Shown here one piece after another: positions 1 to 8,277 of a stretch of DNA of 8,277 bases (position 1 is the stretch's first letter; each line of letters opens with the position of its first letter). The notes under the pieces were generated by a model that saw only the letters and a program-made list of their open reading frames with translations, did no database searches and had not been told where the DNA came from. Source of the DNA: a virus (taxonomy: Duplodnaviria; Heunggongvirae; Uroviricota; Caudoviricetes). The stretch lies in the IMG/VR virus record IMGVR_UViG_2534681993_000039, positions 1 through 8,277 of that record; one strand, given 5' to 3'. Both the position numbers and the translations under genes were made by a program.

Positions 1-240
1 TCAAACTTTTTTTGAGCTGATTTGTGTCACAGGTAACATCTCATCATCAGCCCATGCGGCCAGTCGGTAAGCCTCTGCCGGATTCATTTTCAGAAGTGCC
101 AGCCCGGCCAGAAAAGCCACGCGTTGGCCGCTTTTGCGGGCTTCCGGTGTAAGGCTGTCCAGCCAGGCGCATGCTTCGCTTTCGTTCTTGACGGCCGCAG
201 GCTTCAGATAGAAACTTATCCGTCTGGTTGGAGTCGTCAT
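1..240 (-). CDS. ParR-like ribbon-helix-helix centromere-binding protein, short form (79 aa)
   Basis: ATG at 240..238 preceded by AAGGAG (rc of 248-253), 7 nt spacing; stop TGA is rc of 1-3. The N-terminal 55 aa (RRISFYLKP...LDSLTPEARKSGQRVAFLAGLALL) resemble my recollection of plasmid R1 ParR (RRTIAFKLNP...LDSIPQGERSRLNRAALTAGLALY). Sits 4 nt after the parM stop, the usual parM-parR arrangement. The 124-aa ORF-track version from 375 overlaps parM and has no homology in the extra part. Confidence 0.6.
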   Translation of the reverse strand: MTTPTRRISFYLKPAAVKNESEACAWLDSLTPEARKSGQRVAFLAGLALLKMNPAEAYRLAAWADDEMLPVTQISSKKV

Positions 241-244
241 TGGT

Positions 245-1204
245 TTACTCCTTGTCCATTGCGTACAGCCCATTAACCAGAGCAAACTGTGGCACCCCGT
301 CCGCGATGAAAGTCGCATTAACTCCGCAGGCTTCGCGGATAGCGGGTGCCACAATCTCCGCCCCTCCACCGACAACCATCACCCGCCCGTAACCCGAAAA
401 ACCCGCCAGCGCGCGGATCACGCGTTGTTTCAGTGTTTCTTCCTTTTCACGAATTACCGCCATCAGGCTGGCGTAATGCGCGTCATTGTGGATGTGCTGG
501 CGCAGCCAGGCTTCATCATGGCGATGTTCGATAATGGTATTGGCGATGTGGTGACTGGTGCGCATACCGTTAGTGGCCATCACCGACAGTACGGCATCGG
601 CCATCAGAGAAACGCCCACGTGTGGATCGCAAAACACCTGGCTGATACCTGCCAGTTGCCCCTGAACCTTTGCCACATCCAGCGTGGTTCCGCCCAAATC
701 CACAATCAGCAGGGATTCAAACGGACTCATGTCAGCCAGTGCCTTAAAGCCAGCCGGAATGGATTCAGGCATAACCCGTACGTTACGGATAGTGAATGCT
801 TCGCCGTTCTGGTACTCCACCGGGCGCATGACGTTCGCTTTTTTGCGGTTGATGTTGGCCATGTCCGGCTGTGCGTTTGTATCGAAATACTCGCTCAGTG
901 GCAGGGTGACAACCACATCCACTTCCTGTGGTGTGATGCCTGATTTGACCAGCGCGTGATGAATGGCAATTATATTCACATCGCTGTACTGGTATTGCGT
1001 GTCGGTCGTCTGGACAAAGCGATCGCTGACCGGATCAAAACCATAGCGCACGCCATCAAGCATGTAGTTCGCGGGCTGCGTGCCACCGAACGGCGCAGAC
1101 CATTCCGACTTGAAGCTGTTCGGGCTGATGGCGTTGCGGCGTTCGCCGTTCTCAGTCCATGCCAGCTTGATGTTGGTGGAGCCGTCGTCGATACAAATTT
1201 TCAT
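245..1204 (-). CDS. parM: ParM/StbA-family actin-like segregation ATPase (319 aa)
   Basis: Full-length ORF; ATG at 1204..1202 with AAGGA 8 nt upstream on the - strand. N-terminus MKICIDDGSTNIKLAW, internal VMPESIPAG and LLIVDLGGTTLDV, and C-terminal VMVVGGGAE match the actin-fold phosphate/adenosine motifs and align along the whole length with plasmid R1 ParM as I recall it. Confidence 0.85.
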   Translation of the reverse strand: MKICIDDGSTNIKLAWTENGERRNAISPNSFKSEWSAPFGGTQPANYMLDGVRYGFDPVSDRFVQTTDTQYQYSDVNIIAIHHALVKSGITPQEVDVVVTLPLSEYFDTNAQPDMANINRKKANVMRPVEYQNGEAFTIRNVRVMPESIPAGFKALADMSPFESLLIVDLGGTTLDVAKVQGQLAGISQVFCDPHVGVSLMADAVLSVMATNGMRTSHHIANTIIEHRHDEAWLRQHIHNDAHYASLMAVIREKEETLKQRVIRALAGFSGYGRVMVVGGGAEIVAPAIREACGVNATFIADGVPQFALVNGLYAMDKE

Positions 1205-1222
1205 GTCGCTTTTCCTTATGTT

Positions 1223-1256
1223 GATTAATTAATCGGTTACAGGATTTTTAAATCCC
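1223..1256. promoter_or_regulatory. palindromic elements in the 76-bp A-parM spacer
   Basis: Perfect 12-bp palindrome GATTAATTAATC at 1223-1234; inverted repeat GGATTT/AAATCC at 1242-1255. They lie 10-30 bp upstream of the parM ribosome-binding site. Confidence 0.3.
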
Positions 1257-1280
1257 GCTTTTGCCTGTTTTGTGCGCGCT

Positions 1281-4103
1281 TCATATATCGCGGCACGTTT
1301 TTTGCTCATTTACGGGATTTGTGAGTCCCGTTTCTGTCTGTTTTTTGTTTCCACTGGTCAGGCTACCCCGCAGCAGGTCTGCTTTGCGGTGGGCGCGTTC
1401 AGTGGTTTCACTGATTCTCTGTGCGTGCTCTGCGTCACGGATGGCGCGCAGCATGTCAGAAAGCACGGTAACGGGGGTTTTCATGGTGTTCTGGTCCTGC
1501 TGAAGTGTGGATGCCAGGTGTGCGGCGGCTTCGGGGTCTGATGCCCCCAGCTGTTCCAGATAGCTGGCGACCGGGTTATGGCGGATCTCCGTGCTGCTTA
1601 CGCCGTGATTACGGCTCAGGCGCTGCCAGAGTTGCGTGATTCGGCTGTCCGGGCGGGTATCTGGTTTGCGTACAATTTCAAATCCCTGCGGTGCAATGAT
1701 GCTGCCGTCAACGTACAGACTGCCGCCCCGTAACAGGTGCTGCATCTGCTGTTCACCGATATGCAGGCCGAGAGATTCAGCAGACTCCCGCCATTCTTTA
1801 GCGAGTAACTCGTGGTTATCAGGCAAAGGCCGTGGCTGTTTGCGGCTCTGTGTCCAGTTCTGCATTTCATCACTGCTGTTTTTTGCCTGTTTGTCACGCA
1901 GCGAACGCATCAGCGCCCGGCGTTCGTGCCGTTTCAGTGAGCGCATCCATTCGTTCACTTCAACGCCGTCAGGGAGTTGCGGCCACGGTGTTGTCCGTTC
2001 TTCCGGCTGTTCTGTCCCGTTGTTGTTCGTTTCCTGTACACGGGGACAGTTATTGCCACGAGTCCAAGGGGCGGCAGGGCCGCCCTGAAGGTCAAAACCA
2101 TTTTCGCGGGCGCTGTCTTCCGCTTCCGGTTTACGTCTTATCAGCTTCCAGTTATCCGGATGTGTGCACACACGGGAAGACTCCCCGATGAGTGGTGACC
2201 AGATCCCGTAAATCTGTACATTCTGTTCGCCGTAATCGTTCGGCTCATCTGCGAGGTCGTAGGCGGTGCGAATCAGGTAGTCTTTGCGTGGAACAAGTAC
2301 GCCGCCCTGTTTTTCAATGTAGGAGGCAAAACACCCGGCATCAGCGGCAGCGAGCACTGCATCCATTGCGTCATCCTTCAGCCGTTGCGGGCCTTCCTGG
2401 TTGCGTGCCATCTGGTTGGCAAGGCGGCGCAGTTCACGCCACACCTGACGGGAGGGGATGCCAAAGAACTGGAACTGGCGGACCCGGTGAAGGCGCGCCC
2501 AGCCGATGGCGCGCTCCACGCTCTCGGCCATTGATTTTCCGGTTTCGTGGTCAACGCGTGGCTTGCCCGTTTTCGGGTCGATACCATCCACGGCGCGGCT
2601 GTCCAGGTTCTTTCCGATGTAGGTGGCGATGTAGCTGGTTGGCGTGCCTTTTGAGCCGTCGACATACTCCACCTTAAAGCGCGGAGTAATATCATTGCCC
2701 AGCTCGTGGCGGTCTTCCTGAATGGCAATATCGCGGGTATGGGACACAATGGTGTCGATTTCTTCCGGATGTGCAAAGACCATCATATGCCAGTGCACGG
2801 TGCCGTCATGATGAGGCTCCACCGTGCGGATGCCATACCAGCGCAGGCCGTCGCGGTTCAGTTTTTTGCGGACCGCCGCAAAAAACGTGTTAACCAGGTA
2901 ATCGCTGGAGTCGCGCATTGTGGCCCCGTTCCATTTGGGATTTGGATGACCGTTCTCCGTTGTGGCGTGGTATTTTGACGGGCAGGTGACAGTCAGAAAC
3001 ACCGCTTTGTCGCCACGGGCTTCGGCCAGAAGTTCCAGCCCCTTCATGGTGGCCATCATTTCTGCCTTACGGTGAACCGGGTTACTTACTCCCGCGTAAT
3101 ACACCGTCTCGAGATCAATCGTGAACCCGTCTTCATTTTCCAGCATGAAACTTTTCAGGAAATCGCGTGTTTTCTCGCGCTGTGCGCGAAACTCGCTTAA
3201 CGCGTCCTGGCTCAGATAGGGTGATGTTTTTCTGGAAACCAGACAGGCGGCGCGGAGTTGTTCTTCCCGCCACTCGCAACGTAACAGCCATAGTTTGCGT
3301 TTCCACCATTCCGCACAGGTCAGGCGAAGGATTGCGCCCGGCAGCAGCTCCGTGTCCGGTTCGTTCCTCCGGTCTTTGTCTGTTGTCAGAGCGTCATAAT
3401 GTGGAGGCATGGCGTGCAGGTGTAACGCCATGCGGGCCAGCATCTGATACGCCTTCAGCGTTACATCCATGGTCAGCTCGCCATCGGTCGCGCCAAAGCC
3501 ATCGCAGAGTTTTTCAAAAGTGCCACTGAACATCGCCGCCGTCATGGTGGCCAGCGTCTGTATCTGGTGTTTGTTGAGCTGCGGCAGGTAAAGCAAATCG
3601 TCCAGGCGTTCGCGTCCGGCAAGGGAGCGATAACCCGGTGTCAGCCAGCGGTGATCGGTGCGCTCCAGACGTTCGAATATTTTGCGCAGGGTCCCACGCG
3701 CATAGCGTTCTGCCTGCCTGGCGTTTTTTCCTTTCTGACGATCGGCTTCCTGTTTTTTGCGCAGGAAGGAGAGGTGGCGAATAAGCGGATCGCGCAGATA
3801 GGACGGCAGCAGGCGCAGCGAGGCCATGGCTTCATCCACCGCGCAGCGTGCCTGTTTTCTGGCGTCTCCTGCCAGTGTGATGGTTTTGTCCTGTTTTTCC
3901 TGTGCGTCCAGGCTTTTATTAATCAGGTTGCCCAGCGGCGTGGCGGAGAACGCCGCATCAGCCATTTCCTGGCGGCGCTCGTTCTCTGCCCGGTAGGCAT
4001 CCAGCCAGGAGGAAAGCGCGGATTCAGGAGCGGGGATCCCCGTTCCTTCACGCCCCACTGCGTGGCGCGGTTGTTGCCAGTCCCTGATGTACTCTGCCGT
4101 CAT
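1281..4103 (-). CDS. GpA-family (P2 A / phiX174 A superfamily) rolling-circle replication initiator endonuclease, 940 aa
   Basis: Single 2.8-kb ORF. HUH motif VEPHHDGTVHWHMMVF (HWH codons at 2795..2787) and tyrosine pair YIATYIGKNLD (Y codons at 2633..2631 and 2621..2619) as in phiX174 A and P2 A; also FLTVTCPSKYH upstream. Start ATG 4103..4101 lies 6 nt after the stop of the upstream gene. Confidence 0.9.
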   Translation of the reverse strand: MTAEYIRDWQQPRHAVGREGTGIPAPESALSSWLDAYRAENERRQEMADAAFSATPLGNLINKSLDAQEKQDKTITLAGDARKQARCAVDEAMASLRLLPSYLRDPLIRHLSFLRKKQEADRQKGKNARQAERYARGTLRKIFERLERTDHRWLTPGYRSLAGRERLDDLLYLPQLNKHQIQTLATMTAAMFSGTFEKLCDGFGATDGELTMDVTLKAYQMLARMALHLHAMPPHYDALTTDKDRRNEPDTELLPGAILRLTCAEWWKRKLWLLRCEWREEQLRAACLVSRKTSPYLSQDALSEFRAQREKTRDFLKSFMLENEDGFTIDLETVYYAGVSNPVHRKAEMMATMKGLELLAEARGDKAVFLTVTCPSKYHATTENGHPNPKWNGATMRDSSDYLVNTFFAAVRKKLNRDGLRWYGIRTVEPHHDGTVHWHMMVFAHPEEIDTIVSHTRDIAIQEDRHELGNDITPRFKVEYVDGSKGTPTSYIATYIGKNLDSRAVDGIDPKTGKPRVDHETGKSMAESVERAIGWARLHRVRQFQFFGIPSRQVWRELRRLANQMARNQEGPQRLKDDAMDAVLAAADAGCFASYIEKQGGVLVPRKDYLIRTAYDLADEPNDYGEQNVQIYGIWSPLIGESSRVCTHPDNWKLIRRKPEAEDSARENGFDLQGGPAAPWTRGNNCPRVQETNNNGTEQPEERTTPWPQLPDGVEVNEWMRSLKRHERRALMRSLRDKQAKNSSDEMQNWTQSRKQPRPLPDNHELLAKEWRESAESLGLHIGEQQMQHLLRGGSLYVDGSIIAPQGFEIVRKPDTRPDSRITQLWQRLSRNHGVSSTEIRHNPVASYLEQLGASDPEAAAHLASTLQQDQNTMKTPVTVLSDMLRAIRDAEHAQRISETTERAHRKADLLRGSLTSGNKKQTETGLTNPVNEQKTCRDI

Positions 4104-4109
4104 AGTGAT

Positions 4110-4475
4110 TTACTTCGTCATGCCATTCAGGGTGTCGCGGCAGACTGTAGCCAGCCGCTGAATTTCCAGCACGGTGTCTTCTGTGTCGGCATGGCGATGT
4201 GTGATGCGGATGCTGTCGGCAATCACATCGACGATTGCAGAGGATGGGCGCTGGTAAATGCCAACAACGGACGGGGTGCCACCTTCAATGCGGTAAAGCC
4301 TGTAATTTCCCTCGTGGCTGTCAATCATGTAGCGACCATCAATAACAATCTTTCCGTCAGCGAGCTGCGGTACAGGCAGGGATTTCAGGTACATGTCATA
4401 ACGTTCCCGCACGCGAACGGCAAGATCACGCTCTGTGTTGAGCAGGTATTCAAGAAAGTCGTTGGCGAGAATCAT
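4110..4475 (-). CDS. hypothetical early protein (121 aa), translationally coupled to the replication gene
   Basis: ATG 4475..4473 with AAGAGGA 8 nt upstream (rc of 4476-4492); stop TAA 6 nt before the A start. No family recognised. Confidence 0.6.
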   Translation of the reverse strand: MILANDFLEYLLNTERDLAVRVRERYDMYLKSLPVPQLADGKIVIDGRYMIDSHEGNYRLYRIEGGTPSVVGIYQRPSSAIVDVIADSIRITHRHADTEDTVLEIQRLATVCRDTLNGMTK

Positions 4476-4616
4476 TGCGGCAATCCTCTTGTTACAGATG
4501 TGCGAAGGCCTCCCGCCACAAGGTGCAGGAAAGGCCCGGAACAGGAATTAATGGAGTTTGTTTTGCTGCCGGATGAGCTGCTGAAGCCCGACGTGGTTTC
4601 CGGCAGTTGGAGGTGC

Positions 4617-4862
4617 TCATGCTCTGATTTCCCTCAGTAGCTGGTTGAACATCTGGGTTAGTGGGTTGCTACACCCAAACGGCATCGGGTTTACCTGATA
4701 AGAAAAGCGACCGCCTGTTTTGCGCTCTTTTCTTATGACTGAACCGCTGCGCCAGAGACGGCGTAGCTCCACATTAATGGTTGTGGTTGGTGTATTCAGT
4801 GCTGCGGCGATTTCTCCACCGCTACAACCCGGATTGGCAGCGATGTAGTCCAGAATGGTCAT
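4617..4862 (-). CDS. small putative winged-helix DNA-binding protein (81 aa)
   Basis: ATG 4862..4860 overlaps the upstream stop (ATGA). ILDYIAANPGCSGGEIAAALN...INVELRRLWRSGSVIRKERKTGGRFSYQ looks like a helix-turn-helix followed by a beta-hairpin wing; fold-level inference only. Confidence 0.5.
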   Translation of the reverse strand: MTILDYIAANPGCSGGEIAAALNTPTTTINVELRRLWRSGSVIRKERKTGGRFSYQVNPMPFGCSNPLTQMFNQLLREIRA

Positions 4863-5062
4863 CTGCGTGATTCCTGTACCTGTCTGATAAGATTCACCTG
4901 CACCACGTTGGTGGCGCAGAAGTAAGTGCCGTCAGTGAGATAGATGTGATGTGCATCCTTTTCTGAACTGTGTTTGTCGATTGTGGTAATCAGGCGTTCG
5001 TCAACTTCGTATTCACGTCCTCTGGAGGTGAAACGAACGACAGGAAAATGCTTAATTGCCAT
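4859..5062 (-). CDS. hypothetical protein (67 aa)
   Basis: ATG 5062..5060 preceded by a strong AAGGAGG (rc of 5063-5078); the ORF-track 84-aa form starts further upstream without a ribosome-binding site. Overlaps the downstream gene start by 4 nt. Confidence 0.5.
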   Translation of the reverse strand: MAIKHFPVVRFTSRGREYEVDERLITTIDKHSSEKDAHHIYLTDGTYFCATNVVQVNLIRQVQESRR

Positions 5063-5156
5063 TACGCCTCCTTGGCGTGTGCGAATACCTCCGCGAATGC
5101 GGATTGTTTTCACATTTTCTTATTTAACCTGGGGGCTTATTTGCGCGGTTATTCTT

Positions 5157-5186
5157 CAGTGAAAAAGCGTTCAATCTTTTTTACTG
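5157..5186. repeat. A/T-rich inverted repeat in the 195-bp intergenic gap
   Basis: CAGTGAAAAAG (5157-5167), 8-nt spacer, CTTTTTTACTG (5176-5186); arms match 10 of 11. Confidence 0.35.
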
Positions 5187-5258
5187 AATTAATAATTCGC
5201 ATAATCCCAATGGCGCAGACCACCGAAATAATCAGAACAAGCCATGAGATAAATATAC

Positions 5259-5501
5259 TCATGCGATATTTCCCAGCTTATACGGTTCAATATGTTCCCC
5301 GCATTCTGCGGCACAGATCAGCTCGGAAAGTTCGTTAAGTGCATCCAGGTCATCAGCGTAAAAAGCCACGTCATACAGACTTCGGATTGCTCTGGTCAAT
5401 GAGTCACGGGCCGCACGTTCAGCATGAGCGCCTGATGCACTTAAGCGAAAATAAAAACGCTCAAGTGCTTTGTTAATGAGAGTTTTATATTCTTTGCCCA
5501 T
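5259..5501 (-). CDS. hypothetical protein (80 aa)
   Basis: ATG 5501..5499 (the ORF-track first codon is GTG one codon upstream); AGGG 8 nt upstream; begins 11 nt after the stop of the preceding gene. No family recognised. Confidence 0.45.
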   Translation of the reverse strand: MGKEYKTLINKALERFYFRLSASGAHAERAARDSLTRAIRSLYDVAFYADDLDALNELSELICAAECGEHIEPYKLGNIA

Positions 5502-5512
5502 CACAACGCCCT

Positions 5513-5800
5513 TTAATCTGCTTTCTGTATTTCAGCTTCTGAATCCATACAAATAATTTCGATATAGGGTTCATCGCCATTAACCTGGCGTGCCTTTTCA
5601 GCTTCGCTAATGATTTCTCGTACGGTCTGGTACGGAAGTTCCACAAGCAGTCGCGTGCCGTTCAGATAAACGTAAGTGGCTTCGTCGGCTCCGTTTTTAC
5701 CCGCCGGAGTCACTCCGTCAATAGCGGATGCACGTAATAACAGTTCACCGCGACAATCAATAAAACGGATAAATACACCTTGTGCATGGTCTTTGGTCAT
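5513..5800 (-). CDS. hypothetical protein (95 aa)
   Basis: Internal ATG 5800..5798 with AGGTG ribosome-binding site (rc of 5801-5815) chosen over the ORF-track start at 5914, which would overlap the upstream gene by about 100 nt. No family recognised. Confidence 0.5.
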   Translation of the reverse strand: MTKDHAQGVFIRFIDCRGELLLRASAIDGVTPAGKNGADEATYVYLNGTRLLVELPYQTVREIISEAEKARQVNGDEPYIEIICMDSEAEIQKAD

Positions 5801-5810
5801 AAAGCACCTG

Positions 5811-6149
5811 TTATAAATCAGCCTGTTTAATAAAACTTTGCCCGCGAAGCAGACGATCAACCGTGCGAAGTGCTTCGTATAATGTGAAATCCTGCCCGAA
5901 CTGATTGTCACCACAGCTCAATGCAAAAATGCGGTTTCCGGTAAACGGATTGCGTGGGCATTTGTGGATCACGATTCCAGCTTTCTCAATCAGCCAGGCG
6001 TGCTCGCCGATTTGTTTTACTGGGTAGCCATCCGGCGTTGCGTGTGTATCACTCAGGCTGTAGCGGATGTTGCTGCGTGATGCACTGGTAGTGAAACGGT
6101 TAGCGTGGCGTTCTGTTCCGGTACGAAAATTACGGCGTTGCTTCAGCAT
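5811..6149 (-). CDS. hypothetical early protein (112 aa)
   Basis: ATG 6149..6147 with GAGGTG 7 nt upstream; lies immediately downstream of the cox-like gene. No family recognised. Confidence 0.55.
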   Translation of the reverse strand: MLKQRRNFRTGTERHANRFTTSASRSNIRYSLSDTHATPDGYPVKQIGEHAWLIEKAGIVIHKCPRNPFTGNRIFALSCGDNQFGQDFTLYEALRTVDRLLRGQSFIKQADL

Positions 6150-6163
6150 AAAATGACACCTCG

Positions 6164-6442
6164 TTATTTTGTCATCTGCACGTATTTTTCTGCGCTCCTG
6201 ATTGTTTTCAGGAAAAGAGCGAAGAGATTTACTGTGCGTCTTGAGTTCTTTTCATCCTGGTTGATGGGAATTGAACCTCTGTCAGCCTGTCTTTTCACTG
6301 TGTTAACAGCTTGGTTGGTACGCTTTGCGTAATCTTTCAGGCTTTCTTCAAGTACTGGTAACCCATGCTCATCGCGGTAGGGATAGAACGCTGCTAAACG
6401 CTCAAAGTCTGCCTGTTCGTGTGTGTTCAGGACTTTTGCCAT
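6164..6442 (-). CDS. small DNA-binding protein in the Cox/Apl position (putative lytic-switch regulator or excisionase), 92 aa
   Basis: First gene of the - strand operon, divergent from the repressor gene. DYAKRTNQAVNTVKRQADRGSIP resembles a helix-turn-helix. No clear similarity to P2 Cox as I recall it, so the call rests on position and size. Confidence 0.5.
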   Translation of the reverse strand: MAKVLNTHEQADFERLAAFYPYRDEHGLPVLEESLKDYAKRTNQAVNTVKRQADRGSIPINQDEKNSRRTVNLFALFLKTIRSAEKYVQMTK

Positions 6443-6538
6443 GTGTGATAACCTGCGCTATCTGTGGTTGTTTGTGACTCGGTGTACTTATAAGTACACC
6501 TTGTGCGCAAGCTTAGTGTACTTATAGGAACACTGTCA
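6443..6538. promoter_or_regulatory. divergent switch/operator region between the cox-like and C-like genes
   Basis: 96-bp intergenic region. Perfect 20-bp palindrome GGTGTACTTATAAGTACACC at 6481-6500; related imperfect palindrome AGTGTACTTATAGGAACACT at 6515-6534; both share the direct repeat GTGTACTTATA, centres about 34 bp apart. Candidate - strand promoter: -35 TTGACA (rc of 6534-6539), -10 TAAGCT (rc of 6510-6515). Candidate + strand promoter: -35 TTGTGC 6501-6506, -10 TATAGG 6523-6528. Confidence 0.5.
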
Positions 6539-6847
6539 ATGCTTATCGGTGAAAAAATTAGAGTGATTCGTGAATCAGAGGATTTAACGCGCGAAGAATT
6601 TTGCGGCCTGATTGATGTGCCTATCGGCACTTTGCGTCGTTATGAAACGGGGCGGATTGAAAACATAGGGGGCGAAGTGCTTATCAAGATTGTTAATCAC
6701 CCTCGCTTTTTTAAGTACATGAATTGGCTTATGACGGGAAAAACAAATGAGGCTGCTGGGCAGATCAGTCCGTCTCTCTCCCCTGATGGGCCAAAAAGCA
6801 CATCGCCTTCTCAAAAATCCCGCAAGACTGGTACACAGCCCGGCTAA
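6539..6847 (+). CDS. P2 C-like immunity repressor (102 aa)
   Basis: GEKIRVIRESEDLTREEFCGLIDVPIGTLRRYETGR...PRFFKYMNWLMTGKT...GQISPSL parallels P2 C as I recall it (GEKI, VP.GTL..YE.GR, KY..W.MT, GQI.P.L). ATG 6539 chosen; the in-frame GTG at 6503 is an alternative. Followed by int on the same strand, as in P2. Confidence 0.7.
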   Translation: MLIGEKIRVIRESEDLTREEFCGLIDVPIGTLRRYETGRIENIGGEVLIKIVNHPRFFKYMNWLMTGKTNEAAGQISPSLSPDGPKSTSPSQKSRKTGTQPG

Positions 6848-6853
6848 TCATGG

Positions 6854-6888
6854 AACGCTGGGGGCATGGTGGTCTTGTAACGCTGGGG
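6854..6888 (+). repeat. 10-bp direct repeat AACGCTGGGG x2 in the C-int spacer
   Basis: Exact copies at 6854-6863 and 6879-6888; the second ends 8 nt before the int ATG and may supply its ribosome-binding site. Confidence 0.4.
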
Positions 6889-6896
6889 TTTCACGA

Positions 6897-7871
6897 ATGA
6901 GCATAAAATCAATTCCGGGAGGGTATCTTCTTGACATGCGCCCTGAGGGGCGTAAAGGCAAACGCATTCGCAAAAAATTTAAAACGAAATCGGATGCAGT
7001 TTTATATGAGCGGTGGGTGCTGGCGCAACAGCATAACAATGAGTGGAAAGGAAACTCCATTGATCGCCGTCCGCTGTCAGTGCTTATTGACTTGTGGTGG
7101 AAATACCACGGCCAGCTAATGAAGTCAGGGCATAACATGCGCCTTAAATTGCTGCGCTTGAGTGAGGCAATGGATGACCCGTGCGTGCATAAACTTAATA
7201 CAACGATGCTCACCGAGCTACGTGTGTCCAGGATAGAGCAGGGGATACAGCCCAGCACCATAAATCGAGAGATTGGGGCGTTAAGCGCGATGTTTACCGC
7301 ACTCATCTCATCCGGCCATTTTCTTAACGATAACCCCGTTCAAGGCCTTAAAGGAATGAAGGTTAACGAGCGCGAAATGGGATATCTGAGTAAGTCTGAA
7401 TGTGTTCAGTTGCTGGATGCACTGGCTGAAAATCCCGATGAACGGCTGGCTGTCGAAATCCTTCTGTCGACCGGGGCGCGATGGGGCGAGGTAGCGGCAC
7501 TGGAGCAGCGCCGTGTTCTTCATTGTCGAATCACTTTTTCAAAAACGAAGAACAGCAAAAACCGTACCGTTCCTATTTCTGAAAGCCTGTTTGAAAAGAT
7601 CAAAAAACGGGGCGGGAAACTGGTGTTTCCGACGCTGGATTATCCATTGGTTCGCGATGTCATCAAAACGGTCGCACCAGATGTTCCTGACGGCCAGGCT
7701 GTTCATGCGCTGCGCCACACCTTCGCCAGTCATTTCATGATGAACGGCGGCAATATTCTGACGCTCCAGAAAATTCTGGGGCACGCAAAGATTCAGACAA
7801 CGATGATTTATGCCCATCTTGCGCCGGATTACTTGCAGGATGCGGTGAGATTTAATCCTATTGCTGGGTAA
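6897..7871 (+). CDS. int: P2-like tyrosine integrase (325 aa)
   Basis: N-terminus MSIKSIPGGYLLDMRPEGRKGKRIRKKF and C-terminal catalytic region HALRHTFASHFMMNGGNILTLQKILGHAKIQTTMIYAHL (R, H-x-x-R, H, Y) follow P2 Int closely as I recall it. Start set at ATG 6897; the ORF-track start at 6747 overlaps the C gene and precedes the region of homology. Confidence 0.9.
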   Translation: MSIKSIPGGYLLDMRPEGRKGKRIRKKFKTKSDAVLYERWVLAQQHNNEWKGNSIDRRPLSVLIDLWWKYHGQLMKSGHNMRLKLLRLSEAMDDPCVHKLNTTMLTELRVSRIEQGIQPSTINREIGALSAMFTALISSGHFLNDNPVQGLKGMKVNEREMGYLSKSECVQLLDALAENPDERLAVEILLSTGARWGEVAALEQRRVLHCRITFSKTKNSKNRTVPISESLFEKIKKRGGKLVFPTLDYPLVRDVIKTVAPDVPDGQAVHALRHTFASHFMMNGGNILTLQKILGHAKIQTTMIYAHLAPDYLQDAVRFNPIAG

Positions 7872-7881
7872 GGAGGATGTT

Positions 7882-8277
7882 GTGGAAAAAACAGTTAATA
7901 GCGATTTGCATTTAGGTCAGTACTGGAGAATAGACATTGTATGCGATCCAGAACTTCGAGATGAGGTTGAGCAATATTTTTCTCTACACGATGTTGGTTT
8001 TAGCAAAATTGAAGTTTTTTCCGTCGAAAATCCATATAAACTTGCTCTGTTCTTTGATTTCGCGAAGAAGGGTGTGGAGGTTGCAAAAGCCATTATGGGA
8101 CTCTTAGACCGAAATGATATTGAAATAACGATGTATCGTGCTACGGACAGTAGCCCGCAGTCTGTAAAAAGCATCAAATTGCGTAAGTCTGAAGACGTAG
8201 AGAAATGTAAAGATTTGCTTAGTACGTGTGTCGCAATTGGCGTTCAACGAAATAAGGAAAAAGAGGGGAGCGAATGA
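7882..8277 (+). CDS. hypothetical AT-rich protein (131 aa) translationally coupled to int
   Basis: AGGAGG at 7871-7876 overlaps the int stop codon (TAA 7869-7871); GTG start at 7882, 5 nt downstream, in frame with the ORF-track reading. GC about 40% by hand count against 55-65% in int and A. No family recognised. Confidence 0.55.
   Translation: MEKTVNSDLHLGQYWRIDIVCDPELRDEVEQYFSLHDVGFSKIEVFSVENPYKLALFFDFAKKGVEVAKAIMGLLDRNDIEITMYRATDSSPQSVKSIKLRKSEDVEKCKDLLSTCVAIGVQRNKEKEGSE

Follow-up and report, generated by a model that had tools for sequence, protein, structure and literature searches.

The stretch of DNA analysed here, an 8,277-nt window, covers the early region of a P88-like (Xuanwuvirus, Peduoviridae) prophage of the P2 family, a type that is very common in E. 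coli, and the ParMR pair at the end of its early operon is a conserved backbone component of P88-like phages. Two palindromic repeats upstream of parM were recognised from their sequence as a candidate centromere (parC). On balance, we think it probable, if only just, that parM, parR and the repeats make up an entire type II (ParMRC-type) cassette maintained by selection, which, during expression of the early operon, would segregate the phage circle in its transient extrachromosomal state. The module itself has been reported before, in P88 with plasmid maintenance or an extrachromosomal phase proposed as its role (Pfeifer 2021), and in roughly one in four E. coli P2-like phages, again with plasmid maintenance proposed (Rousset 2022, PMC9122126). 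The extrachromosomal phase, which a first reading of the window made from the sequence alone (the sequence-only reading) had put forward, was thus already in print, and since both the feature and the hypothesis are published, the present finding adds little to them. The new points are that parMR belongs to the backbone and not to the cargo, that a candidate centromere is present, and that the 79-aa length of ParR in the window is a probable artefact.

Identity and gene organisation of the window

P88 and P884B11 showed 95.7-97.3% nucleotide identity to the window over 73% of its length. Positions 17-6115 showed 92-97% DNA identity to P88 and the P88-like relatives compared (Citrobacter phiSM, P884B11, 520873, the E2348/69 prophage and P2-like prophages of O157:H7 strains), with an identical gene order including gpA, parM and parR, and ParM of these relatives was 95.6-100% identical to ParM of the window. 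P88 differs from the window in the immunity/integrase end (about 6115-8277 in the window) and in the cargo located 3′ of parR, while parR of the window differs from that of the P88-like relatives by one base in a homopolymer. Both P88 and phiSM can be induced and form plaques. The copy in the window is integrated, with btuC adjoining, and the flanking prophage of E. coli DEC9B carries portal, terminase, capsid and tail genes of P2 type.

All genes from position 6442 down to 1 lie on one strand with short gaps, and gpA is located directly upstream of parM in the same predicted operon (Table 1). The coordinates of parM, parR and gpA and the 76-nt gap between gpA and parM were all confirmed. GC content was 0.53-0.56 across positions 1-1200 and 0.52-0.60 in gpA, and this closeness to the gpA backbone agrees with the earlier statement that the module is not a recent insertion. 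Known RNA families gave no match in the window.

Table 1. Features of the 8,277-nt window
Feature	Position	Strand	Remarks
parR, ribbon-helix-helix-type centromere-binding adaptor (predicted)	1..240	-	Plasmid_stab_B (PF10784), E=6e-24
7-A run (6 in finished genome)	7..13	-	shifts the parR frame to TGA at 3-1; comparison with DEC9B chromosome
parM, actin-like segregation ATPase, 319 aa	245..1204	-	StbA_N E=4e-82, ParM_N E=1e-68 (Pfam); PHROG 691 'partition protein'
gpA-parM intergenic region, 76 nt	1205..1280	-	parM RBS AAGGA at 1213-1217; no promoter- or terminator-like site predicted on this strand
Candidate parC repeat 2, gpA-parM intergenic region	1237..1274	-	A-rich tract + palindrome GCGGGATTTAAAAATCCTGT (1239-1258)
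gpA, rolling-circle replication endonuclease, 940 aa	1281..4103	-	Phage_GPA (Pfam) E=2e-130, residues 179-503; PHROG 91 'nicking at origin of replication'
Candidate parC repeat 1, within last gpA codons	1310..1347	-	A-rich tract + palindrome ACGGGACTCACAAATCCCGT (1312-1331); direct-repeat family D1
Other early-operon genes, including MarR-type wHTH protein, DUF4754, DUF4761	4110..6442	-	one strand, short gaps
Divergent lysogeny module	6539..7871	+	adjoins btuC attachment site
HTH repressor, lysogeny module	6539-6847	+	
Tyrosine integrase, lysogeny module	6897-7871	+	

ParM and ParR are homologues of the R1 partition proteins

The R1 ParM structures 1mwk/4a62 matched the window ParM over its full length (E=1e-92), and the two proteins are 46% identical. 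The phosphate-1, connect, phosphate-2 and adenosine motifs of the actin-fold ATPase are all present in the window ParM, and the R1 ParM residues D6, G8, S9, T10, E148, D170, GGTT, E284 and Q308 are all kept (the conserved positions are also listed as D6, G8, S9, T10, E147, D169, G171-T174, E283 and Q306). Together with the Pfam matches, the alignments with the R1 proteins bear out the sequence-only reading in that a genuine R1-type (type II) ParM/ParR pair closes the early/replication operon of a P2-family element. The dN/dS of parM was about 0.05 (69 alleles) versus 0.15 for the C-terminal part of gpA, values that point to strong purifying selection on parM.

The parR gene starts with ATG at position 240, 4 nt past the parM stop codon, and is preceded by AAGGAG. 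Its product had been taken as 79 aa long, but this is a truncated reading. The finished chromosome of E. coli DEC9B contains six A residues at window positions 7-13 and is otherwise identical, and every E. coli genome match spanning these positions is a single base shorter than the window. With six A residues, the reading frame of parR continues for 72 nt past the window's left edge and gives a 103-aa product. The 79-aa product is recorded solely for AJVW01000523.1, the draft contig of origin, and the remaining complete ParR copies examined are 103-104 aa long (81/81). The extra A at 7-13 is probably a homopolymer error of the draft assembly, and it is because of this frameshift, most likely a sequencing error, that ParR as written in the window lacks its C-terminal tail.

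Full-length ParR aligned with positions 1-103 of PHROG 2515, whose profile is 103 positions long, while a PDB sequence search with ParR gave no match. An alignment with R1 ParR, whose reference sequence was confirmed by its presence at 100% identity in over 1000 plasmids, showed conservation of the N-terminal DNA-binding domain and of the C-terminal tail around a hypervariable linker. ParR of the full-length relatives invariably ends in K/R-x-N-I/A-x-x-L/F-F-P, which aligns with ...KKNAMKLIN of R1 ParR; the C-terminal tail of the R1 protein reportedly binds ParM (Gayathri et al. 2012). ParR of E. coli prophages falls into two allele classes, A and B, which are about 55% identical to each other. 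Incompatibility-driven diversification of ParR was considered and set aside, as the three genomes with two prophage copies were uninformative (ParR class differed in one pair and was the same in two).

A candidate centromere upstream of parM

The two repeats upstream of parM, which belong to direct-repeat family D1, are spaced 73 bp apart. In most relatives, the palindrome of repeat 2 is a perfect ACGGGAT-N6-ATCCCGT, and across 56 distinct upstream sequences the palindrome arms are conserved and the loop is variable. The palindrome is absent elsewhere in the 35.8-kb P88 genome and is thus specific to this locus. An equivalent two-repeat layout is found in a Plesiomonas prophage, with CGGGA-N8-ACCCG units 72 bp apart, and in an Enterobacter prophage the repeats stay beside parM despite the presence of two genes between parM and gpA. 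Within E. coli, no covariation of ParR class with the upstream repeats was detected, classes A and B sharing the same repeats. The palindromes were rejected as terminators, given that no T-run follows them and that the first lies inside gpA.

The consensus scan found no promoter belonging to parM itself; as this insensitive scan missed the early promoter too, a lysogen-active parM promoter may be present. The finding that neither a terminator nor a promoter is predicted between gpA and parM is compatible with their presumed co-transcription.

parMR is conserved and lies outside the variable hotspot

Of the 5426 complete E. coli genomes, 1303 (24%) contained the parMR module, which was present and intact, with a full-length parM, in all 84 P88-like loci examined. 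The order gpA-parM-parR-cargo-portal also occurs in P2-like prophages of Plesiomonas, Serratia and Enterobacter, whose ParM proteins are 54-62% identical. The combination of an integrase with ParMR, described as unusual in the sequence-only reading, is therefore widespread. The novelty claim of the same reading was to fall if ParMR belonged to the conserved core of a known phage-plasmid lineage with documented partition function; the module did prove to belong to the core of a known lineage, but one in which partition is a predicted function.

That the module is an inert, functionless relic left by an earlier recombination with a plasmid is hardly credible. The window parR, frameshifted as written, would fit such a relic, but the frameshift is missing from the finished DEC9B genome, parR is intact in all 81 other complete copies as parM is in 84/84 loci, the dN/dS of parM is 0.05, and synteny is kept across four genera.

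The interval between gene A and the portal gene (gpA-gpQ) is a known hotspot for anti-phage cargo in P2-like phages (Rousset 2022, PMC9122126), and ParMR had been assigned to this variable cargo locus. The interval is indeed the hotspot, but its variable part begins after parR. The segment following parR contained 28 cargo types in 55 loci, and some downstream cargo proteins matched AbiL, RmrA, PDC-M11A and PDC-M04A in PADLOC, whereas the presence of parMR does not vary, parM being found at every locus and parR in all complete copies. Because the variable hotspot starts downstream of parR, parMR is backbone and not hotspot cargo of the tin/old type. Location within the gpA-portal interval and adjoining cargo with matches to defence systems would nevertheless suit a repurposed module, with ParMR serving exclusion, defence or plasmid incompatibility, for instance against incoming phage or plasmid DNA. 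This we regard as very unlikely, as no PADLOC defence model matched ParM, ParR or gpA, the module is invariant next to genuinely variable cargo, it is under strong purifying selection with cis repeats of its own, and dependence on the early promoter, if it exists, would probably leave it silent in a lysogen. Cross-talk with plasmids is also unlikely, since the identity of plasmid ParMs does not exceed 53% and the phage repeats bear no relation to the iterons of plasmid parC. Defence as the leading idea was dropped, a PADLOC scan of ParM, ParR, gpA and their neighbours having returned nothing.

P88-like elements are almost always integrated

In the 5426 complete E. coli genomes, parMR occupied 1449 chromosomal and 2 plasmid places, so that more than 99% were in the integrated form. 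Phage-type ParM was found in 6 of 72,556 plasmid records, five of them replicons of 228 kb to 1.4 Mb; among these records there was one phage-sized replicon with a phage-type ParM. A complete P88-like genome is present as a 34.5-kb circular replicon in one finished assembly (NZ_CP148288.1, strain Z1323PEC0009).

These counts bear on the hypothesis published for P88 (Pfeifer 2021) and for P2-like phages (Rousset 2022, PMC9122126), which we take up here as a facultative phage-plasmid, with an alternative lysogeny, beside the integrated state, as a stable circular plasmid of low copy number for which GpA would provide replication and ParMRC partition. We consider it unlikely. The 34.5-kb circular replicon is in line with it, but this lone circular contig may also stem from spontaneous induction in the sequenced culture, and the distribution over chromosomes and plasmids, the scarcity of phage-type ParM among plasmid records and the presence of an integrase and an attachment site adjoining btuC all speak against it. 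GpA-type rolling-circle replication is not known to sustain copy-controlled plasmid maintenance, which also counts against a plasmid lysogeny. The plasmid prophages P1, N15, SSU5 and D6 resemble P88-like phages in being tailed temperate phages with plasmid partition genes, and D6 lends the hypothesis some support by carrying an StbA/ParM-type system whose ParM homologue is 47.5% identical to the window ParM. However, these four are plasmids without chromosomal integration, unlike the integrase-bearing P88-like elements.

Comparison with known segregation systems

The phage module shares with ParMRC (parA/stb) of R1/R100, the type II paradigm, the order repeats-parM-parR, a ParR of the same Pfam family and a cis element upstream of parM made up of two repeat blocks. 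The blocks of R1 parC are 94 bp apart and comprise 2 x 5 tandem 11-bp iterons flanking the system's own promoter, whereas the phage counterpart consists of two units of ~40 nt with one 7-bp-arm palindrome each, one of them inside gpA, and has no recognisable promoter. ParR is 103 aa long in the phage and 117 aa in R1, and the phage replicon is an integrating, rolling-circle one whereas R1 is a theta-replicating low-copy plasmid.

A partition system on an integrating element is not unprecedented, contrary to the initial impression, tested cases being SrpMRC of SXT/R391 and AlpAC of CGP3. In SXT/R391 ICEs, the type II partition system SrpMRC stabilises the excised, relaxase-replicated circle and reduces its loss (Carraro et al. 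2015, PMC4489591). Like the P88-like element, the ICE is normally integrated and forms a transient circle replicated by a rolling-circle enzyme, and SrpMRC is the best functional counterpart of the role proposed here. The two differ in that the SrpMRC element is conjugative while the P88-like element is a phage, and in that SrpM/SrpR are described as only distantly related to R1 ParMR (PMC4489591) while ParM of the phage is closely homologous to the R1 type. In the CGP3 prophage of Corynebacterium glutamicum, efficient replication of the viral DNA requires the actin-like AlpC and its adaptor AlpA (Donovan et al. 2015, PMC4446434; PMC5539076). AlpAC/alpS is similar in that an actin-like filament former and a DNA-binding adaptor, encoded by an integrated prophage, act on induced viral DNA, but it belongs to a different actin-like family, its host is an Actinobacterium, and the role demonstrated for it concerns DNA transport and the efficiency of replication rather than partition.

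The AlpAC precedent, together with the position of parMR in the early operon directly after gpA, would be compatible with an organiser of the lytic cycle only, in which ParM filaments position or disperse the replicating circles for replication or packaging without contributing to inheritance. Monomeric circles are what P2-type packaging uses, and separation of circles could thus matter. Such a restricted function seems rather improbable to us, as the full plasmid-partition architecture is kept and the known output of that architecture is the bipolar separation of pairs; this explanation overlaps with segregation of the transient circle and differs from it in the payoff alone.

A proposed role during the extrachromosomal phase

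Under the favoured explanation, segregation of a transient phage circle, parM and parR as the last genes of the early operon would be made alongside the rolling-circle initiator GpA, at the time, following infection or induction, at which the phage DNA replicates as a free circle. ParR dimers would bind the two palindrome-bearing repeats that straddle the gpA stop codon, and the conserved C-terminal tail of ParR would capture ParM-ATP filaments, the growth of which would drive sister phage circles apart. Non-integrated genome copies would in this way be dispersed in the cell, with both daughters inheriting one before integration or lysis, and a further payoff may be that replication and packaging templates stay apart. 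Stable plasmid maintenance is a less likely payoff, and a transient rather than a permanent plasmid role is suggested because the element is almost always integrated (1449 versus 2).

Points against this explanation are that the candidate centromere, to which ParR binding is predicted, lacks the ten-iteron (11-bp) array of R1, that ParR classes A and B go with common upstream repeats instead of covarying with them, that a parM promoter active in the lysogen may have escaped the promoter scan, that ParR as written in the window has lost the ParM-binding tail, most likely through a sequencing error, and that the gain from separating circles in a short lytic cycle is not obvious. Literature searches for functional tests of ParMR in P88, CP-933T or P2-like phages gave annotations and hypotheses only. 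A more specific version, which we put forward tentatively and hold to be possible rather than probable, is that ParMRC of P88-like phages is a replication-coupled, early-operon segregator of rolling-circle monomers, with a minimal two-palindrome centromere overlapping the end of gpA, and not a plasmid-maintenance device. If this version is true, a large family of integrating P2-like phages would be transiently plasmid-like after infection or induction, with lysogenisation or yield raised, and the repeats would represent a parC of a new, compact kind.

An active module would mean that about one in four P2-like prophages of E. coli are actively partitioned episomes for part of their cycle, and the line between integrating phages and phage-plasmids would be blurred, as it is for the SXT/R391 ICEs. 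Such activity would also have effects on the efficiency of lysogenisation, on prophage stability and on the spread of the defence cargo carried downstream.

Early region of a P88-like prophage

The window comes from a P2-family prophage integrated next to btuC and comprises its early and lysogeny region. Over the 8277 nt it is identical to the finished E. coli DEC9B chromosome except at one base; in that chromosome P2-type portal, terminase, capsid, tail and lysis genes lie to the left of this segment. Positions 17-6115 are 92-97% identical to Escherichia phage P88, Xuanwuvirus P884B11, Citrobacter phage phiSM and related phages, and P88 has the same gpA-parM-parR order. The immunity/integrase module at about 6115-8277 is unlike that of P88 and most relatives; 182 genomes covered 80% or more of the whole window, and 1278 covered 80% or more of the parMR segment. 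Between the MarR-like gene and the gene upstream of gpA, the interval that here holds the ash family pseudogene, P88 carries additional genes (Ead/Ea22-like, SPFH/lipoprotein). The terminal ORF, of 131-138 aa and about 41% GC, generated no match in NCBIfam or PADLOC and resembles a moron sitting at the end of the prophage.

On the minus strand, a single long series of tightly packed genes runs from 6442 to 1 and ends with gpA, parM and the parR-like gene. The gap between gpA and parM is 76 nt, with AAGGA preceding the parM ATG, and parR, preceded by AAGGAG, starts 4 nt past the parM stop. The sequence-only reading had placed this pair behind gpA with a GC content similar to the backbone, and the gene coordinates, gaps, Pfam matches and GC content, which is the same as in the adjoining genes, bear it out. 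The Pfam GPA domain is confined to residues 179-503 of GpA, leaving the C-terminal ~430 aa without any Pfam domain; GpA length ranges from 785 to 940 aa across ParMR-bearing relatives.

Features of the window (positions in nt)
Feature	Position	Strand	Description
Candidate parC repeat 1	1310-1347		within last gpA codons
Candidate parC repeat 2	1237-1274		gpA-parM intergenic region
gpA	1281-4103	minus	940 aa; Pfam Phage_GPA E=2e-130
parM	245-1204	minus	319 aa; Pfam StbA_N E=4e-82, ParM_N E=1e-68
parR-like gene	start 240	minus	Pfam Plasmid_stab_B E=6e-24
Truncated pseudogene	4472-4591		'ash family protein' (RefSeq); between MarR-like gene and gene upstream of gpA
First early gene	6164-6442		no Pfam match; Cox-family protein at the P88 counterpart position
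Terminal ORF	7861-8277		between integrase and btuC junction; PHROG 14142 (unknown function)

The parMR module is real and already known. Its products are annotated as partition proteins in RefSeq, P88 and PHROGs, Magaziner 2019 listed the module for phiSM, and Pfeifer 2021 singled out P88 for carrying partition genes though integrated, suggesting episomal and integrative states. No functional test of the module was found in the literature searched.

ParM and the full-length ParR

The window ParM aligned over its full length with the R1 ParM of solved structure (E=1e-92, 46% identity) and conserves R1 residues D6, G8, S9, T10, E148, D170, G172-T175, E284 and Q308; judged by its sequence, it is a close R1-type homologue. 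The parM gene keeps its full 319 codons in all 84 loci compared (the window, DEC9B, P88, the circular copy NZ_CP148288.1 and 80 IMG/VR contigs). The median pairwise dN/dS of 69 parM alleles was 0.05, versus 0.15 for the 3'-terminal 399 codons of gpA. That the pair is an inert relic is the least credible explanation considered.

The parR-like gene had been read as encoding 79 aa. Positions 7-13 of the window contain a run of seven A on the minus strand, and the stop follows after 79 codons; DEC9B has six A there, giving 103 codons. The 79-aa form is on record solely for the draft contig AJVW01000523.1 (GCA_000264015.1), the source of the window, all other complete copies among the 84 loci are 103 or 104 aa, and the full-length form matches all 103 positions of the PHROG profile for the family. 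The truncation is most likely a homopolymer error of the draft assembly. It matters because the 24 missing residues include the conserved tail K/R-x-N-I/A-x-x-L/F-F-P, which is kept in all alleles and across genera and aligns with the R1 ParR C-terminus (...KKNAMKLIN; the R1 query was 100% identical to a gene adjoining parM on >1000 plasmids). The R1 tail is said, from work by Gayathri et al. in 2012, to be the ParM-binding element. Between the conserved N-terminal domain and this tail, residues 66-92 form a hypervariable linker. The gene is a mosaic: at position 186 (~codon 18) it loses DNA homology to many relatives, O157:H7 prophages among them, two allele classes in E. coli are about 55% identical beyond residue 18, and dS over the first 65 parR codons is ~0.58 versus 0.08 for parM.

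Candidate centromere upstream of parM

Upstream of parM lie two direct repeats of about 40 nt each, 73 bp apart, each consisting of an A-rich tract followed by a palindrome with the consensus ACGGGAY-N6-ATCCCGT. A comparison of 56 distinct upstream sequences showed conserved arms and variable loops in the palindromes. The palindrome occurs at the two parM-upstream sites only, both in the whole of P88 (35.8 kb) and in the 48 kb surrounding the DEC9B prophage, a result of uniqueness rather than enrichment, the pattern having been taken from the sites themselves. A Plesiomonas prophage has a like layout (CGGGA-N8-ACCCG, repeats 72 bp apart, the first also inside gpA). An Enterobacter prophage carries two 25-nt repeats 93 bp apart, with 20-nt inverted arms, directly upstream of parM; as two genes separate gpA from parM there, the repeats track parM rather than gpA. 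The parC of R1, as read from an R1-type locus, has its 11-bp A-rich/CCC iterons in two blocks that flank the promoter and lie 94 bp apart, so that position and two-block layout are alike but unit structure differs. We infer that ParR would bind the phage repeats. Both E. coli ParR classes share the same repeats, giving no covariation support for the pairing; this sharing fits their identical N-terminal strand (TRRISFYLKP).

Backbone and cargo

The segment from the parR stop to the portal gene occurs in 28 types in 55 loci, and several of its cargo proteins matched PADLOC models (AbiLi/AbiLii, RmrA, PDC-M11A, PDC-M04A), whereas a PADLOC search with ParM, ParR and GpA gave no match. The gpA-gpQ interval of P2-like phages is a defence hotspot (Rousset 2022). 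Since parM is constant and the segment past parR is variable with defence matches, parMR is backbone rather than cargo, and the hotspot starts after parR in the P88-like lineage. The earlier description of the post-gpA region as a variable anti-phage locus holds for the segment after parR and fails for parMR. Repurposing of the module for exclusion or incompatibility is very unlikely, and a defence role finds no support, as neither protein matched PADLOC and the variable cargo begins only after parR. In DEC9B the sole content of the cargo segment (18808-19927 of the locus) is an 89-aa Cys-rich ORF (19294-19563), which had no match in PADLOC; it comes with a promoter-like site of its own, an inverted repeat resembling an operator and a strong terminator.

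Distribution and plasmid carriage

Of 5426 complete E. coli genomes, 1303 contain the parMR segment, E2348/69 and O157:H7 strains among them; it sits at 1449 sites on chromosomes and 2 on plasmids. Within the phage collection, this ParM is confined to the P88-like group (next best, plasmid prophage D6, 47.5%), and it occurs in 6 of 72,556 plasmid-collection records, the next best plasmid ParM being 53% identical. One of these, NZ_CP148288.1, was deposited as a circular 'plasmid' of E. coli Z1323PEC0009; its 34,461 bp make up an entire P88-like phage, with integrase, structural genes and parMR, and may represent a maintained episome or an induced circle. The other five range in size from 228 kb to 1.4 Mb. 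P88-like early regions with parMR lie inside the large plasmid records NZ_MK439959.1 (228 kb), NZ_CP110658.1 (Salmonella, 272 kb) and NZ_CP114132.1 (439 kb), suggesting prophages inserted into plasmids or mislabelled chromosomal pieces. A permanent plasmid state is unlikely as the main use of parMR because the element is nearly always integrated. A facultative plasmid-prophage state, which the circular record would suit, is doubtful given this rarity of stable plasmid carriage.

The gpA-parM-parR-cargo-portal order also occurs in P2-like prophages of Plesiomonas shigelloides (ParM 62% identical), Serratia (58%, cargo HicAB) and Enterobacter ludwigii (54%, cargo KAP NTPase), so ParMR on an integrating element, earlier called unusual, is not special to the window. 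The remaining genes are mosaic, the Serratia and Enterobacter phages sharing 86% identity in portal and 31% in gpA, and their ParMs are about equally close to R1 ParM (55%) and to the E. coli phage ParM; the gpA-parMR association is therefore old or repeatedly assembled. The Plesiomonas contig WEKF01000002.1 (32,167 bp) consists entirely of a ParMR-bearing P2-like phage and ends 141 bp past the integrase gene; it could represent an extrachromosomal form, or the assembly may have broken at the att site.

Proposed role of parMR

A crude scan, which also missed the early promoter, predicted neither a promoter-like nor a terminator-like site between gpA and parM on the minus strand. The cargo gene downstream of parR has a promoter-like site of its own and is followed by the first strong predicted terminator. 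The empty gap and the gene packing suggest a place for parMR at the distal end of the early operon. The P2-type early operon is repressed in the lysogen and switched on after infection or induction. A role for parMR as a purely lytic organiser is unlikely.

Beyond what was known, the analysis places parMR in the backbone with the hotspot after it, proposes two palindromic repeats as candidate parC, finds stable plasmid carriage rare and attributes the 79-aa ParR to an artefact. The ParMRC-like cassette is complete and under selection, and the element that carries it is nearly always found integrated. The nearest tested analogues of the proposed role are SrpMRC of SXT/R391 ICEs (PMC4489591) and AlpAC of prophage CGP3 (PMC4446434). 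On balance we lean towards a role for ParR and ParM on the free phage circles that GpA replicates, during the time when the early operon is active. The two proteins would then separate sister circles, so that both daughter cells receive the genome ahead of integration or lysis, or templates are kept apart.
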